From: Tricharina praecox
Taxonomy: Eukaryota
Length of the DNA: 64,000 nt
Direction of reading: 5' to 3'
Assembly: GCF_024521635.1 (NCBI RefSeq)
Contig: NW_026250417.1
Span: 186,001-250,000 of the forward strand
Every line of letters starts with the position of its first letter. Position 1 is the first letter of the stretch. Below, in pieces: positions 4,063-64,000 of the stretch. The position numbers and the translations under genes were made by a program. The notes beneath the pieces were generated by a model. It searched no databases. It was given only the letters and a program-made list of their open reading frames with translations, and was not told where the DNA came from.

Positions 4063-5209
4063 ATACACGGGTGACTGGGGGAAGTCGTGCGTCCTTGGGC
4101 TGGGTCTGGGTTGAGTTGGAGCTCTCCTGCGTATACCATTTCGTGCTTTGATCATGGGGTTTCGGTAAACAGTGGGGAATGGGATGGACGGATGGCATAC
4201 GATAGATGGCAGATGGAATCGAACATGCCCCCACTGCTCTGAGCAATTTTGTGACCCATCGTAAAGTGATATTGTGGCCACGCAGATGAATCTAGAAAGC
4301 CACCGCCTTTCTCCCGCCGTCAGGTCTTCCTTCCCTCCTTGGAGAAATGCAAGTGTACTATTCTCTTGGCGGCCGATAATCAATTGGCTTGTTTGTTATT
4401 TTTATCCACGAATGACGCAGCCAGTGCCACTTGCCCACTCCCAGTGCCCAGACTAGCAAACACGCATTGGCAATTTGGCAGCCTCGTCCTCGTCTTCGTT
4501 GTCAGTGCCCACAGCCCACAGCCTTCCCTGCCCGCAAACAGACGGCTACCCACATATCTACCCACAGGACATGAACATGAACACGACATGCATGTGTTTT
4601 TGCGCGTTTCACGGGGCTCGCCAATTCCTAGGGCGAGCGGGCGAGGGGGGCAAACCGCATATGGCCAATTGCGATTGCGATGTTGTGTGGAATGGTCGGG
4701 TGGGTGGTTGGTGGACAGGGGGGGTTTGGTTGAGTTGTCAGGTTGTCAGAGACCACCGACCTATGTACCGTACAGACATACCGACCTACATACCGACCTA
4801 CATACCGACCGGGCGAGCGACCGGACGATCCTGGCCGGGTTCGTCATCGTCCTGGCCACTCCGCTCGAGGAGAGAAGGCGACTACATACATACGGTATGG
4901 ATGGTATGGATAGTGCTATGGATGGTACTATGGAGTGCTCTATCTATCTGTCTAACCATCTGTCTATCTATCGTGCCGCTCCCGCCCACACTCTTCCTCT
5001 TCCTTTCCGTCTCCCCCCCTCGCTCACCCTTCTCCTCACGAGTCACCGCCGTCGTCACCACCATATATCATATACCATATATACCGACCGATCTTCTGCA
5101 ACCAGCCGACGAACCGAACGAACGAAACGAACGGAGTGAAACGAAACAACCGTCGGCGACACGAAATAATAATACCAAATTCGAAAGGCAGCACTGAGCA
5201 CTGAGCAGT

Positions 5210-5346
5210 CCCCCCCCCCCCCCCCCCCCCCCCCCCGCGGCTACCCGTCCCGTCCGTCCCGTCCGCCCGCCCGCTCCCGTAGCTATCTCGCAAACACCAC
5301 CACCACCACCACCACCACCACCACCACCACCACCACCACCACCACC
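5210..5346. repeat. Poly-C tract followed by (CCA)n microsatellite
   Basis: C run at 5210-5236 and CCA/ACC repeats at about 5295-5346, upstream of the ATG at 5457. Confidence 0.9.
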
Positions 5347-16345: not shown

Positions 16346-17134
16346 TTGTGAGATGATGAGGTCTTTCCTCCTGGCCATGCGAGAGTTGGAGTAATGAGGA
16401 CGACGTCGCTGTTGTTTCGCTTCTGTCGTTCATCTCTTCCGAGATGCTTCTATTCCTTCATTGCTTCTATTCTTTTGTTGCTTCTATTCTTTTGTTGCTT
16501 CTATTCTTTCGGTGCTTCTATTCTTTCGGTGCTTCTATTCTTTCGTTGCTTCTATTCTTCATTGCTGTACATCGACGATGAGGTCTTTCCTCCTGGCCAT
16601 GTGAGAGTTGGAGCAATGAGGACGATGTGGGCATGAGTTGTGGGAAGAAGGAGTTGACAGGGCCTTTTGTACTGGAAGATGGATGGAGCTGTACAATTGT
16701 AGCTTGCGGTCAGGCTCACAGTGGCGGACGAGTGGGAGTTTTATTTATTGCTGAATCATGATCATGGCCTGCACATTCTGTTTGTCCTGTATAAAGCTGA
16801 TAAGATTGGAATTTATGCGACTTCACGGTGTTTTGAGTAAACTACTCTACTCGAGTGATGTCTTCAAGATCTACTCTAGTTCTCCACACCTTGTATATAG
16901 GCTGTAGCTGCACATAGCGTCCCGCTGCTCGACCCTGCTAGCGCGCGCCGAAACTTTCCTCTTGCCTACTTCGCGCCCTGCTTGGAACATGAATTCTGTG
17001 CTACCCTCGAAATTTTATTTCCAAATCCACCCACCACCACCACCACCACCGTATTCTCCACGACGGTTCAATCCACCACTCACCACCCTCCCCCACCACC
17101 CTCCCCCCGCACCAAGAACAACAACAACAACACA

Positions 17135-52707: not shown

Positions 52708-53688
52708 TTGGCAGTTGGCAGTTGGTTGTAAGGTGTCGTTGCTTTGAGCGTGAGTGCGTTTTTGTATGGTATGGCAATTGTGGATGGCACGTAGCTAGGC
52801 TTAAGATGGTCTGATTGAGATATACACGTGGCAACACCTGGGTTTCGGTTTGATTGCAGGGAGCTAGAGTCTGGAGATAATCATGCCCGTCCGCTTTGCC
52901 GTAGTGAGGTCTTGAATCAAAATTCACAATACCGAACGCCGAAAGATCCGCTGATCCTCCGTAGAGACTCGATCCTCGATGCGCAATCAACAGCTTAGCC
53001 TGGAGCTTTGCTGTTCCGTAACCCCGTAACCCCATGTCAAGGTATGCAAGTGTGGAGAGGGGAAGCTGCGGGAGTGATGTGGTTTATATATTGCCGTTCC
53101 GGAAGGACATTGTAACATGAAAGGATTAGCAGTTCGACATGGCATGTCACTCGGTACAGAATTTCGAGGCCGAATTTTTTAGCAGATGGCAGAAATGGAG
53201 AGAAATGTGCAGCAGCTTGCGCATAGATATCCAACAGCTGTCAATACTGCCTTGTGCTATGGGATGCAGAGCGGCAACCGGCTTCCCAGTGGGTAGAGGA
53301 GCAAGTCGGTGGTCACCTCGGACCCCCAAAATAGGGAGTCAGTCACGACCCCCAAGGGTTCGGAGTCATCAGTCCTTGAGGTCAAGGCACCCGAGGGGAG
53401 AGCAACGGCCAAGGTAAGCACGGTGAACCAGCTGCCGAGGTGGATGAGTGCACATGCTGAGGTTGGAGATTGTGTTGTGGACACAGGCAAGTAGATTCTG
53501 TTGAGGGTGTCGGGAGAAAGCGTGTGAGCAAGCGTGCGGTCGGACCCACACCGCACCCGACTCGCACGTGTCTTGAAGTCGGCCGGCGAGCTTCGATTCT
53601 CACCTACCCTCGTTCCCAGCCCTAAGCCCCCAGTCAGCTAGCTACTTCCCGTCGGCGAAATCGGCCCCCCTAGAACACCTAGAACACC

Positions 53689-53740: not shown

Positions 53741-53895
53741 ATACTTACCTTGATGCGACTTTGCTGGCTCATCGATCAGTAAAGCTCCAGGGATAAGGTT
53801 CTCATTGCACAGCGAGAATCGAGTCTCTGCGAATGATCTTAGGGTCTTTCGGCATCGCAATTTTTGATTTCTTCCTTTTTTGATGAAGGCGTTTT
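53741..53895 (+). ncRNA. U1: U1 snRNA, copy A
   Basis: 5' ATACTTACCT; helix H GATGC/GCATC; stem I CTTTGCTG/CAGTAAAG; stem II with ATTGCAC loop; stem III; Sm site AATTTTTG at 53859-53866. The 3' end is approximate. Confidence 0.88.
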
Positions 53896-54145
53896 CCATC
53901 GGTTACTTGGGTGCTCTGTGAGGCCGAGGTGGCGAAGGAGGATGGTATGGAGGATCTGCGGCATGGCGTATGGAAGTTGTACATACTGTGAGTAAACCCA
54001 ATACAGCGCAAGCACAGTGTAAAGAAATATTCATGGTCCCAAACTTCATGGCTTACATCCATCCCATCCCGTCAGCTGTCGTATCAGGACACCCGATGCG
54101 ATCTTTCTTGCAGCCATCATATGTACCGTAGTTTACAATAAAGAC

Positions 54146-54411
54146 GCAGACGAGCGGTACAGCCAGGGCGCAGGCCATCCTAGATTTCCTCTCATCCACT
54201 GATGTGGGCAGACGGATCCCAGAGGTCGCTGAGGAAGGTGCAGCATGTGAGGTGTCCGAGTGGGAGCCCGGGGAGAGGGAAGAGAGGGAGGCGGAGCTGC
54301 GGCGAGCGGAGCTGCGGCGAGAGGAGGAGGAGGATGCTGAGGTCGAGGAACCGCGATCACTCCCGCTGTTCCTCCCCACACCCTCTTCTATGGCGTCTCC
54401 TGATGAAGTAG
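54146..54411 (+). mobile_element. 5'-truncated, frameshifted 3' remnant of a non-LTR (LINE-like) retrotransposon ORF2
   Basis: Translates as ADERYSQ/QAILDFLSSTDVGRRIP..EVSEWE..ERE..LPLFLPTPSSMAS. From memory, this resembles the C-terminal tail of fungal non-LTR ORF2 proteins. A small insertion near 54167 breaks the frame. Confidence 0.55.
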
Positions 54412-54604
54412 CAGGGGGCAGGCGGGGGAAGCCACGTCGGGCCGCTTGACGAAAGCCGGGTTGGACAGTGGTGTGGAAACGGAGTGTGTACGGGCGGATA
54501 TTACCATGACCTGTCTCCGGAGCAAGAGGGAGTCCTGATCGATGTAACACATTTTCTTCGAAGTCTCGGCCTTCTGAGGAGAGAGCCCAGCACCATCAAC
54601 GAAA

Positions 54605-54759
54605 ACGCCTTCATCAGAGCGGGGGAAGAAATCAAAAATTGCGACGCCGAAAGGCCCGAAGACCTTTCGCAGAGACACTCGACCCTCGCTGTGCAATGAG
54701 GGGGTGTCTCTGGAGCTTTGCTGATTGTTGAGCCAACAAAGCCGCATCAAGGTAAGTAT
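54605..54759 (-). ncRNA. U1: U1 snRNA, copy B
   Basis: Reverse complement reads ATACTTACCTTGATGCG GCTTTGTTG-loop-CAGCAAAGC, CAGAGACAC..CCCTC ATTGCACAGC GAGGG..GTGTCTCTG, GAAAGGTC-TTCG-GGCCTTTC, then GCGTC and Sm site AATTTTTG (54640-54633). Confidence 0.9.
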
Positions 54760-54797
54760 AAAGAAGAAAAGGAAACGGTGGGTGGGGGGAAGGGGGC

Positions 54798-54909
54798 TTT
54801 TATAGGGGTTTTTGCTGGCTAGTTTGGCGACACTGCGTGTCACTCGGTCAAAAACCCTGGCTAGCTACTTCCCGTCGGCGAAATCGACCCCCCTAGAACA
54901 CCTATAAAA
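54798..54909. promoter_or_regulatory. Back-to-back TATA boxes of the divergently transcribed U1 copies B and C
   Basis: TATAAAA on the minus strand at 54804-54798 and on the plus strand at 54903-54909. Confidence 0.7.
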
Positions 54910-54953
54910 CCCCCCGTCCCCGCCCCCCCTTTCTCCTCTTTCCTTTCTTCTTC

Positions 54954-55105
54954 ATACTTATTTTGATGCGACTTTGCTGGCTCAACCATCAGCAAAGCTC
55001 CAGAGATAAGGTTCTCATTGCACAGTGAGAATCGAGTCTCTGCGAATGATCTTCGGATATTTTGGCAACTCAATTTTTGTGTGCTTCTGCGTTTTCCGTC
55101 GGGCA
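54954..55105 (+). ncRNA. U1: U1 snRNA variant or pseudogene, copy C, with altered 5' end
   Basis: Starts ATACTTATTTTG instead of ATACTTACCTTG. Stems I-II, the ATTGCAC loop, the TTCG stem III loop and the Sm site (55072-55079) are retained. Helix H carries a mismatch (GCAAC). Confidence 0.8.
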
Positions 55106-55921
55106 CTTGGGCGCTCAGTGAGGCCGAGGTGGCGAAGGATGATGGTATGAAGGATTGCGGCGTGCTGTGTGGGTTGTAGGTATGGCATACGGCTGCGGGG
55201 CCGAGACGTGGAAGAAAATGGATCTAGACATAGTAGGCCGCCAAACCCGTGCGAGTGATGAATCCGCCAAAAAACCAGATGCTCGCTCCCACCGCTGAGC
55301 ACCTCCTATGTCTTTACGCCCCTCCTCGTTAGTGGAACCTCCCCCTTAAGGAGCAGCTACCTAGAGTAGCCGATCGCAGCAGCACCCGAATCCCAGCGGG
55401 GGAGAGTCCACCAGTGCCCACCAGTGCCCAACAGTGCGGCGGGTGGGGGGGCAGAGCACTCGACCAACGGTCCAACCCTTCCACCCCGTTACCGCTCTGG
55501 GCCCTGGAGGCTGGAGTTCTTCAACCCGCCAGCGGGCCAGCGGCGACCTACATCAGCGTAAGTATACATGATACCTTTTCCCAGCCGGCCAGACCGCACA
55601 TTCGAGGACCTTGCGGATTTCGTGCAGGCTGCGGCCGACTCGGGCTAGACTGCGGGCTAGACTGCGGGCTGGACTGTGGGCTACGGGTTCTGGAAACACC
55701 ACACCACACCACACCACGGCAAAAACAACCAGCACCGCACCCAGACCCGCACCCGCACCCAAACCCATCACTAGAAGTCTAGACTATGCACCACGCAGCC
55801 CTGCCGCCACCGGTCCACAAAGAATGCAGAATACGTTCTGGCCGACTCTCCCGCACCCCGCCCGCCGTCCGCCTGGCGCCCAGGTCCTTCCGACGGGACT
55901 ACCGTGAGCGACGGAATGCGT

Positions 55922-56080
55922 GACTGCCAGGACTGCTGGGACTACTGAGACTGCTGAGACTGCTAGGACTGCTAGGACTGCTAGGACTGCTAGGACTACC
56001 GGGACTGCTGGAACTGCTGGAACTGCTGGGGCTACCAGGACTGCTGGGACTGCCGTGACTACCGGGAGCGACGGGACTGC
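55922..56080. repeat. 9-bp tandem repeat (GACTGCTAG/GACTGCTGG)n
   Basis: More than a dozen degenerate units are directly visible. Confidence 0.85.
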
Positions 56081-57175
56081 CGCTGGCTGGAGCAGGAGGA
56101 ATTGAAACTTGAAACTTGAAACTTGATGGACGGCAGGACGGCAGGACGGGAGCGTGCTCTATCATACCTAGGATTCCCCGGCTCCCCAGTACCTACCAGA
56201 TCATAACACGTCACGAACGAGCACTCGCCGACGGAACGGACTTTCGCCGGGACTACCGCCGGGACTGTACTGTGCTGCACTGAGCCCGTTGCCGGGACTG
56301 CTGCCGGGACCGCTGACGGGATACCTGTTATATAGTCTACCCGCAAAGTGTGTTTTGCCGTGTTCTAGACGTGCTCAGTGCTCAGTGCTCAGTGCTGTAT
56401 GTAAACAGCGAAATGAGAAATAAAACAAAAACGGACTGGGTCATGACCGGACTAACTGAATAAAAAAACAAAGCTAGACTCGACTCGCCATTCAACTCCT
56501 CACAGAGCCTCACATTCAGACTCCAGAGGACAGGATACCGGTATATATGGATTTGATATCCACCGGTACTATGGCCAGGAATGACCACATTCGATGATGG
56601 AATAATAATGATGATAATAACGGGCCGTAATAATGCTGATCCAGGTCTCACATCACCCACCATTCACCGGTTTACCAAAAACTCGAGTCGAAATCCCAAA
56701 ATTCCATCTATTCGTTCCAATGCCACCCAGTCCAATGCCACCCAGTACCACCCAGTCCAGCCCAGTCCGTCCAGTCCAGTCCGTGCAATCCATCCGTCCC
56801 ATGCAGAACGCAGGATTAACCTATCAAAACATCAAAACAACAAAAAAAAAACGCAATACACACAACAAATCAAAAGCAAAACAATTCCACTCCACCCACC
56901 TCCCCCTCCCCCCCCCCCCCACACACACACACAGCCAAAATCACCCAGCTACATCGCTGTAGTCGTCCGTCCTTCTAAAAACTTTTATCTTCACACAACA
57001 CACACCACACACCGCACAAAAACGCACAAATACAATGATACGAATAATCGATGAATATTTTCACAACGCAACGCTTCGTACAACAAAACTCCCCAACACA
57101 CACAAAAACGTAACGTAAAACACATAAACGAAATATTTTCAATAGAAATAGAAATACCTAAAGGTAAATAGGTTT

Positions 57176-62100: not shown

Positions 62101-62337
62101 CGATTCGGCGGTCGGCGGGTACCTGTAGTCTGTAAAATACTATACATATAGGCTGTGCCCAGATTCGCGCATAAATTCCCCACTCCAACTTGCCTGCTCG
62201 TCGATACTCTACCGTCCATGTGAGCGGTTTTTTTTCTTTCCTTTTTTCGGTCTTTTTTTTCTTTCGCCCTCCTCTCCTCCATCGCGGAAAAAGAATAAAA
62301 GGCACGGACTCGGATCAGATCGGTGATATATAAAGTA

Positions 62338-62792
62338 CCCTGACAAAAAGGATTGGACAAAGCCCGTTTTACACCAAAAATGCCCACTTTCATGCAACCC
62401 AAACATACCCTCCACCTGGTCGAAAAAAATCATCTCTTTTACAGAAGCGTTAGAATCACAAGCTGCTTCATCAATAAAAACTTTGACGACTTTCATCACA
62501 GATTGGGGCTGTACGACGTTGTATTGTGCAGGAGTTGAAAAGTGACATTACATTTTGTATGGGGCTCCCATACAAAAAGCTACTTAGCAACCATCAATTT
62601 TTCCCTCGTCTGGTATTGCTCCACAACAACAATTCAGAACTCCGTGAGGAGTTCCCATATCGTTGTCGGTGTAGTTATAGAGGTCTCCCGATGGTCCCTA
62701 ATTTTTTTCGATACGTTGTGATTGTTGTATCGGTGGCTGAAAATGGCCATTTTTGGTGTAAAACGGGCACTGTCCAATCCTTTTTGTCCTAG
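62338..62792. mobile_element. Non-autonomous Tc1/mariner-type element (MITE), about 455 bp
   Basis: About 55-bp imperfect terminal inverted repeats (GACAAAAAGGATTGGACA..GCCCGTTTTACACCAAAAATG), flanked by TA at 62336-62337 and 62793-62794. No transposase ORF. Confidence 0.88.
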
Positions 62793-64000
62793 TACTGTAC
62801 CAAGTATCTGGTAGCTAAATGTAGCAACTATTAGTTGCTCTACTCTAGAGTCTAGTGAATGCTCCGCTAGAGTAACGAGCGCGTCTCAGGGATGTGCCCA
62901 TCTGTCCGTTCAGTTGCACATCGCCTCACCGCGTAAATAGTAGTTGCCGAGTGAGCTTTCGAGTAGTCGCCGAAGTATAGTATGCTACGTATACATATGA
63001 GGTATGTACCTATATAGCGGTGCAGAATACAGAGGGAGCTGGCAGTGCTGGCGTTGGGGGTGCACGCGTGGGGAGGGACAAGGGAGAGGAGAAAGGATGT
63101 GGTAAGGACTTACTTGCCCGTTGGTTACTTGAGGACTTACTTGAAGCACTTATTAAGTTATTCGCTCGGAGGAGAGTAAACCATTCTCCAAAAAACAATT
63201 CCCTCATCAGGTTAGATACTCTAGGCATTCCATAGTTCCACTCTCACGCTGAATCTGATGCTTCTTGGCACGATGAGTCCGTCCGTCCAATTAAGGCCCG
63301 CCCCGGCCCCCGGGTCCTACTTGGCAGGCTTCTCGAAGCCCAGCCCGACCCGGAGCTTGCTGGAGCTTGAGCTTTGAGCTGGAGCTGGAGCTTGACACCG
63401 GTAGAGCAACTACGGTACGGTAACTACTACGGTACCATCCCTCCTCGCTTCTCTAGCAGGGGGGATGGAAAGACCAGCGTCCGTGGGGTCCGGATCCGTC
63501 GGTTCAATTTCATACAAGTCCCAAGTCCCAACTCCCCGAGTAACTACCGTACGCGGTACACGGTACACGGTACAGACTTGCTCGGTATGACTGCCCTTTT
63601 CCTTTCCTTTCCTTTTCCTCCTCGAATTCCTAAACGTCGAAACGTCGAAACCTGCTCCTCGAGCTCCTTCTCGAGCTCCTAGGTAGCTAGCTAGCTGTCG
63701 TCAGAATCCCGGCTGATGCTTGCTTGCTTGGCCATGGGCTCTACGAAATATCCCCAACAAAACACTCCCCCTAAACTAAGCTCGAAGCTCGAAGGGCTCC
63801 ACTCCACTTCAGCTCATGGTTTTGCCGCAGGTGATACCCGGTAACTACCTTTGTAGAGTAGTTAGAGGTACCTAGAGCACCCAGGTAGACAGGCTGTTAT
63901 GTACTCACAAACATAGGAGTCCCCTGAAACGACGACGGCTGCAATTGTTGAGGGATTCGCCTCGTTCTTCTCGTCACTTGACGTTTGCGAGCCTTAGCCT

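Follow-up and report, generated by a model that had tools for sequence, protein, structure and literature searches.

The U1 genes of the locus

The window, i.e., the whole 64-kb stretch of DNA analysed (C12:186001-250000 within the 38.4 Mb assembly of Tricharina praecox), carries several copies of the U1 snRNA gene, among them copies A to D, two of which (B and C) lie head-to-head (Table 1). An ornithine decarboxylase gene is found 2 kb away; its product shows 100% identity to a Tricharina praecox record, and its next nearest protein matches come from other Pezizomycetes. The 5′ end of copy C (window 54954-54965, +) reads ATACTTATTTTG, in which the TT at 54961-54962 corresponds to C8U and C9U, whereas CC stands at the matching sites of copies A (53741, +) and B (54759, -). 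The C8 of U1 pairs with the donor G+1 and C9 with the donor G-1. A reading made from the sequence alone (hereafter the sequence-only reading) had picked out this replacement of CC by TT, which is confirmed by the comparison with copies A and B, and its pairing logic was right and is established knowledge, U1 nucleotides 3-ACUUAC-8 being those given for donor pairing in PMC3985668. It was also correct in describing the variant 5′ end as complementary to AAAUAAGUAU.

Table 1. Features at the U1 locus, in positions of the window.
Feature	Position	Strand	Basis
U1 copy D, degenerate, 30 bits (not in model)	52914..53049	-	family model
U1 copy A, canonical 5′ end	53741..53870	+	
Dispersed repeat remnant between copies A and B	54145..54509	+	
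U1 copy B, canonical 5′ end, head-to-head with C	54629..54759	-	
B-C head-to-head spacer, common to both copies	54760..54953	no strand	
TATA-like box 52 nt upstream of copy C, the spacing seen in most copies	54902..54909	+	
U1 copy C, 5′ end to just beyond the Sm site	54954..55083	+	Rfam, family model
5′ splice-site recognition segment of copy C; C8U, C9U at 54961-54962	54954..54964	+	
Stem-loop 1, intact, -10.8 kcal/mol	54970..55000	+	
Stem-loop 2, U1A motif at 55017-55023	55001..55042	+	
Stem-loop 3, weakened by two changes	55043..55064	+	
Sm site, intact	55072..55079	+	
Conserved downstream block, common to sister copies; SL4 or 3′-end signal	55091..55129	+	

The identity of copy C as a U1 gene was examined with the Rfam model RF00003, which scored copies A, B and C at 51.3, 50.1 and 42.6 bits (E 2e-7 for copy C), all under the gathering score of 69.5; a search of the 64-kb window against Rfam at the gathering threshold returned zero matches. 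All 24 RF00003 matches in the genome lie under this score (the top one at 62.8 bits), and because the canonical copies fail it too, the low score of copy C reflects the divergence of the family. A model built from 25 copies of the family (C included) gave copy C 133.7 bits, within the 134-148 bits of copies A to C, and copy C is 86-91% identical to its six nearest U1 copies over 125 nt. Within the clan CL00005, U1 and not U11 was retained as the best match, and this, together with the near identity to canonical U1 sisters, led to the rejection of copy C as a U11 snRNA of the minor spliceosome. Matches to MIR1858 in Rfam were rejected as spurious, since they stem from the inverted arrangement of B and C.

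Promoter and scaffold of copy C

The spacer between copies B and C contains a TATA-like box in each direction (54798-54805 on the minus strand, besides that of copy C) and two conserved upstream motifs (54837-54849 and 54860-54886), and would thus seem to be a bidirectional promoter. In the 110 nt upstream of copy C, 14 sites differ from copy A and the TATA-like box is kept. The claim that promoter, stem-loops and Sm site were all kept holds for the promoter and the Sm site, and for most of the stem-loops: 33 of the 35 consensus pairs are formed in copy C, the broken ones being an A.A in helix H, also present in the canonical copy 263975, and a G.A in stem-loop 3 (SL3), as compared with 0-6 broken pairs in canonical copies. 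SL3, at -2.7 kcal/mol, is the weakest among the 27 copies of the genome (-4.8 to -12.5 kcal/mol in canonical ones), whereas the energy summed over all stems of copy C, -34.8 kcal/mol, is close to the canonical mean of -34.3. In the U1-70K loop of SL1, copy C resembles its canonical sisters, the whole family departing here from the Rfam consensus; the folds predicted for the terminal SL4 region vary among copies.

The U1A loop sequence AUUGCAC is present in SL2, with its first bases predicted to be paired: a C-to-T change at 55026, private to copy C, should close off the loop at its first three bases. The idea that such occlusion is limited to the variant copies was rejected, as it is predicted in four canonical copies too (the test that found it in 4/6 variants was set aside), and for this reason the predicted occlusion is weak evidence of decay in copy C. 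Taken alone, copy C looks only mildly damaged. Having an intact promoter and Sm site and almost intact stems, it may be transcribed; transcription would start from the spacer in common with copy B, and the transcript might be packaged.

U1 and other snRNA genes in the genome

Profile searches of the fetched regions gave 28 matches to U1, from which C12:225269 was dropped (E 0.03, partial), leaving 27 copies, of which 22 lie at C12:239-306 kb, a further two at C12:491-492 kb and single ones at C10:501602, C16:144234 and C50:904340. An exhaustive genome-wide search for the pattern of U1A motif plus Sm site returned 26 matches, namely 24 of the known copies and two others (on C20 and C50), which were rejected as they are without U1 similarity; the three copies missed by the pattern have lost the U1A motif. 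A pattern scan of metagenomes found 37 loci, none of them U1-like beyond the pattern itself, and no orthologue of copy C from another species was seen there.

The copies diverge from one another by up to about 30%. Six head-to-head pairs, B-C being one, have their members about 190 bases apart with a TATA-like box each way in the common spacer, and repeated blocks of 300-900 bases occur in both orientations, with 70-88% identity. The family would turn over by duplication and inversion of such pairs and by exchange of sequence among copies. In an alignment of 25 of the 27 copies, 15/35 stem pairs are changed on both sides, a number reached in 0/500 shuffles (relatedness uncontrolled); this covariation points to selection on structure in most of the copies.

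The first 11 bases are canonical in 20/27 copies, differ only at position 1 in one, and are changed within positions 3-9 in six. Among these last six, helix H is broken more often (4/6 vs 2/21 of the others; p 0.011, post hoc and among related copies), and the U1A motif is lost in 3/6 of them vs 0/21 (p 0.007, likewise post hoc, the copies not being independent). Two of the U1 copies, L022:4801-4932 (+) and L025:9355-9484 (-), have a rewritten 5′ end in common and are both without a U1A motif, and retain the TATA-like box and the Sm site.

Other spliceosomal RNA genes were counted in the same genome, with lower bounds of 16 matches for U2 (15 over the cut-off), 6 for U4 (5 over), 1 for U5 and 2 for U6 (1 over). 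As U2 and U4 are amplified too, the amplification is not peculiar to U1, and the 27 U1, 16 U2 and 6 U4 matches are unusually many for a fungus. In 15/16 of the U2 matches (L073:3856-4130 and 14 further loci in L074-L084) a spliceosomal intron of 55-99 nt is predicted, with the donor GTACGT in nine, GTATGT in four and GTACGC in two; in the same 15/16 matches the 11-nt first exon upstream shows complementarity to the U6 3′ end. Introns in U2 are cited for Rhodotorula in PMC5855946; none was found for Pezizomycetes in the literature consulted. Two U2 copies are damaged (L084:4327-4527, +, and L085:4334-4536, -), one with changes in both its Sm site and the sequence that pairs with the branch site, the other with a duplication at the branch-pairing sequence.

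The region upstream of U1 matches that upstream of a U4 gene (L031, about 5110-5330; C83:87137-87328), which suggests a promoter design common to the snRNA genes. It also matches one unexplained site on C23 (L030; C23:301006-301064).

Authenticity and origin of the two substitutions

The TT of copy C lies in a T-rich stretch of a repeated family, a setting in which an assembly error might be suspected. Such an error would, however, have had to produce two substitutions with the length unchanged, one of which is carried by a sister copy, C12:259000 (L021:8871-9000, -), which reads ACUUUG and has C9U only. Four soil metagenomes from one study contain parts of the stretch, and in one of them (X1) a contig of 151 bases is identical to 54994-55144 with zero differences, i.e., it carries the 3′ half of copy C, so the lesions in this half are not private to the assembly. 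For the two bases themselves the support from X1 is indirect: none of the nine T-to-C places tallied for it is at 54961-54962, and a contig that differs from the assembly at 54975, 37 letters from its end, should span these positions. The TT would thus seem to be present in X1, which may not be an independent genotype. An assembly error at 54961-54962 is unlikely, and in our estimate extremely so.

Copy C and C12:259000 belong to duplicated pairs that match each other. They differ at 2/60 sites in the 5′ half of U1 and at 9/66 in the 3′ half, with 18/110 differences upstream and 15/104 downstream. Since the sister also has C9U, two successive mutations, both of the type commonest in the family, probably gave rise to the TT: C9U would have come first and been spread by a recent exchange of the U1 5′ half, and C8U would then have arisen in copy C.

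The sequence-only reading had suggested that the C-to-T changes might reflect repeat-induced point mutation (RIP) or methylation-driven deamination of repeated DNA. Both changes are indeed C-to-T, in repeated sequence, and transitions dominate the U1 family, in which C>T and G>A together make up 80/188 substitutions on terminal branches (copy D excluded). Against this, C>T occurs without a bias of context, the rates per site in the family being 0.043 at CpA, 0.070 at CpC, 0.056 at CpG and 0.036 at CpT, and those in the dispersed repeat 0.069, 0.087, 0.093 and 0.079, respectively. The TpA/ApT ratio is not raised either (0.66 in the U1 cluster vs 0.74 in random DNA), and the two changed Cs sit in CpC and CpT contexts. 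With no preference for CpA or CpG and no rise in TpA/ApT, neither process is indicated; the mutation spectrum largely refutes this origin, to which we give very little credence.

Pairing of copy C with donor sites

Duplexes with the recognition segment were computed, with no modified bases, for 30 GU donors and 6 AU donors. On G|GUAAGU, copy C pairs about 5 kcal/mol more weakly than canonical U1, in agreement with the claim that it would meet G|GU donors only by G-U wobble. Over the 30 GU donors it never exceeds the better of canonical U1 and 259000, and its advantage over canonical U1 is at most 0.1 kcal/mol. On the six AU donors copy C is the best, at -5.5 to -7.7 kcal/mol vs -4.4 to -5.6 for canonical U1.

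This last result is what would be expected of a U1 with shifted specificity, as had been proposed for copy C, serving rare introns that begin with AU (in the same register) or GA (in a shifted register). The intron G+1 is, however, needed also after U1 has left, which counts against such a role. The targets themselves were sought genome-wide as a donor sequence followed by a branch site and YAG, the search covering short introns with an RCTRAC branch site, a scope in which a few introns starting with AU or GA would go undetected. While the positive control GTAAGT was found 590 times vs 119 expected, the perfect complement of copy C had 0 occurrences, and ATAAGT, a pattern that spans both the AU register and the shifted GA register, occurred 46 times vs about 61 expected from composition (99 for the reversed control), several of these loci holding a GT donor a few bases downstream. 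TTAAGT occurred 25 times vs 33 expected. As to precedents, a shifted GA register was proposed, speculatively, for a C8U copy in Eurytemora affinis (PMC7072748), where it speaks for the idea; the same source puts AT-AC introns at 0.019% of annotated fungal introns, and a tunicate with 95% non-GT/AG introns retains the canonical U1 end (PMC13326754), both of which speak against it. No target having been detected in this search, a specificity-shifted copy C appears improbable.

Other variant copies

A broader version of this idea is that the family is a panel of U1 RNAs re-tuned for common donors that mismatch canonical U1, with copy C at its far end, serving rare donors that begin with AU or GA. 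The copy at C12:492536 (L028:7410-7536, -) carries U5G and U10A and is thereby complementary to UG|GUACGU, which is the intron donor in eight U2 genes of the same genome; it keeps the promoter, the U1A motif, the Sm site and helix H, with a fully paired SL1, and is a better candidate for a functional variant than copy C. The 5′ end of copy D is complementary to G|GUAUGC, though copy D is degenerate and its C9 is changed in the metagenome run X2. In the computed duplexes, 259000 reads A|GUAAGU better than canonical U1 does, and A is found at -1 in 13/53 candidate donors.

A donor sample of 512 kb without snRNA-targeted loci, with 296 branch/acceptor anchors, showed the largest excesses for GTGAGT (15 vs 1.2), GTATGT (13 vs 2.0) and GTATGC (9 vs 1.6), so that the commonest short-intron donors in it (GUGAGU, GUAUGU and GUAUGC) mostly mismatch canonical U1. 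An enrichment of GTACGT (18 vs 6.2) in another sample, which contained U2 introns, was rejected as inflated by them; without these, both GTACGT and GTAAGT fall outside the 20 largest donor excesses in the 512 kb. Among the four scorable variants, two match common donors, for which the post hoc chance is about 0.04-0.06. We regard a re-tuned panel as a doubtful reading, with the odds well against it. If true, the panel would be a natural, gene-encoded specialisation for splice sites in a fungus, possibly with feedback of a U1 variant on the maturation of U2.

Comparison with known systems

The closest known parallel to copy C is offered by the variant U1 (vU1) genes of humans, the class I "pseudogenes" of 1q12-21, which, as described in PMC3561869 and PMC8457000, were duplicated at the DNA level with promoter and flanks kept and stand beside several canonical genes. 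All eleven human variants found in snRNPs have one to three changes in the recognition segment (PMC8457000), and copy C has two. To judge from its flanks, promoter and number of changes, copy C shares the tested features of a promoter-retaining vU1 gene. Unlike the human genes it is fungal and stands in a head-to-head pair with a TATA-type spacer, in a family with a canonical majority. The C8-to-U change has likewise been reported in one of several copies in Eurytemora affinis, and in a human U1 annotated as a pseudogene (PMC7072748); copy C differs in the added C9U, and the copepod has, according to the same account, thousands of GA-AG introns, while the donor search found no matching class here.

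With canonical U1 (RF00003), copy C has in common the four-way junction, SL1-SL3, the U1A motif and the Sm site; it has lost C8 and C9, i.e., the ACUUACC that pairs with G|GURAGU, and has a weak SL3 and one mismatch in helix H. It thus lacks the pairing feature of a canonical U1, and the target expected of a co-evolved U1 was likewise not found in the donor search. The family as a whole resembles the multi-copy snRNA families in concerted evolution treated in PMC4291461, with many similar copies and signs of exchange between paralogues, and differs from many fungi, for which PMC8457000 gives a single locus per snRNA. In the literature covered, which took in the main fungal snRNA surveys (Canzler 2016, Marz 2008) as citations only, nothing was found on multi-copy or variant U1 in Pezizomycetes, nor a yeast C8U phenotype.

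Interpretation of copy C

The reading that we favour, and hold to be probable, is that selection on copy C has relaxed and that it is a young U1 variant with its promoter retained, similar to the human vU1 genes. Among the possibilities first offered, that of a young pseudogene or weakened variant is accordingly the one that fits best. Copy C would be a weak or idle U1 heading for loss and would read no new class of donors: on real donors two G-C pairs become G.U, at a loss of about 5 kcal/mol on G|GU, and this weaker pairing would be tolerated because some 20 canonical genes supply U1. Relaxed selection is favored by the matching duplicated pairs of C and C12:259000, both with C9U, beside a canonical majority; by the greater frequency of other lesions in the six copies with a changed segment; by the amplification of U2 and U4, U2 with damaged copies; and by the human case, in which the variants combined make up <0.1% of U1 in 293T cells (PMC8457000).

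On the other side, the scaffold of copy C is no more damaged than that of the average canonical copy, it has an intact promoter, SL1, U1A motif and Sm site, and a soil metagenome carries its 3′ half unchanged over 151 bases. Human variants with one to three changes in the segment do enter snRNPs and spliceosomes (PMC8457000), and one human U1 variant functions in 3′-end processing (PMC3561869). A rival reading takes copy C to be expressed as a variant snRNP that acts outside splicing or as a regulator; as reported for some human vU1s, it might bind U-tolerant sites in nascent RNA to affect 3′-end formation, or soak up U1 proteins. The promoter in common with the canonical copy B, the kept Sm site and SL1/SL2, and the human vU1.8, which acts on 3′-end processing and not on splicing (PMC3561869), are consistent with this. 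The change is, however, recent, is found in one of the 27 copies and is of the commonest mutation type, and nothing that would indicate selection for it was detected; a non-splicing role is therefore unlikely.

As a damaged spare, copy C itself would matter little, and its family setting more. In a small-genome fungus with 27 U1, 16 U2 and 6 U4 genes, the variants of the U1 5′ end (C9U, C8U plus C9U, U5G plus U10A, and others) make up a naturally occurring allelic series, in which every member has a separate locus and can be deleted singly. Whether variant U1 genes tune the choice of splice sites is an open question in humans, where such genes are difficult to study one by one. Were 492536 or copy C to prove functional, this would be a gene-encoded specialisation of U1 outside animals, of which none was found for fungi in the literature covered.

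Repeats around the cluster

The dispersed repeat between copies A and B has a short reading frame and an A-rich tail, and pieces of it occur in L115, L123, L033, L025 and other regions. We take it to resemble the 3′ end of a non-LTR retrotransposon; a Pfam search gave no match above the cut-off, and one unnamed homologue was found. Pieces of this repeat lie near several U1, U2 and U4 genes, and also in 6/40 random 10-kb pieces of the genome. Elsewhere in the window, a tandem array of 9-nt units is located about 800 bases downstream of copy C (55904-56092), a 17-nt tandem array flanked by two 55-nt direct repeats is found at 16352-16628, and a 62-nt inverted repeat, 87% complementary with its arms 345 nt apart, at 62331-62799 may represent a small transposon.
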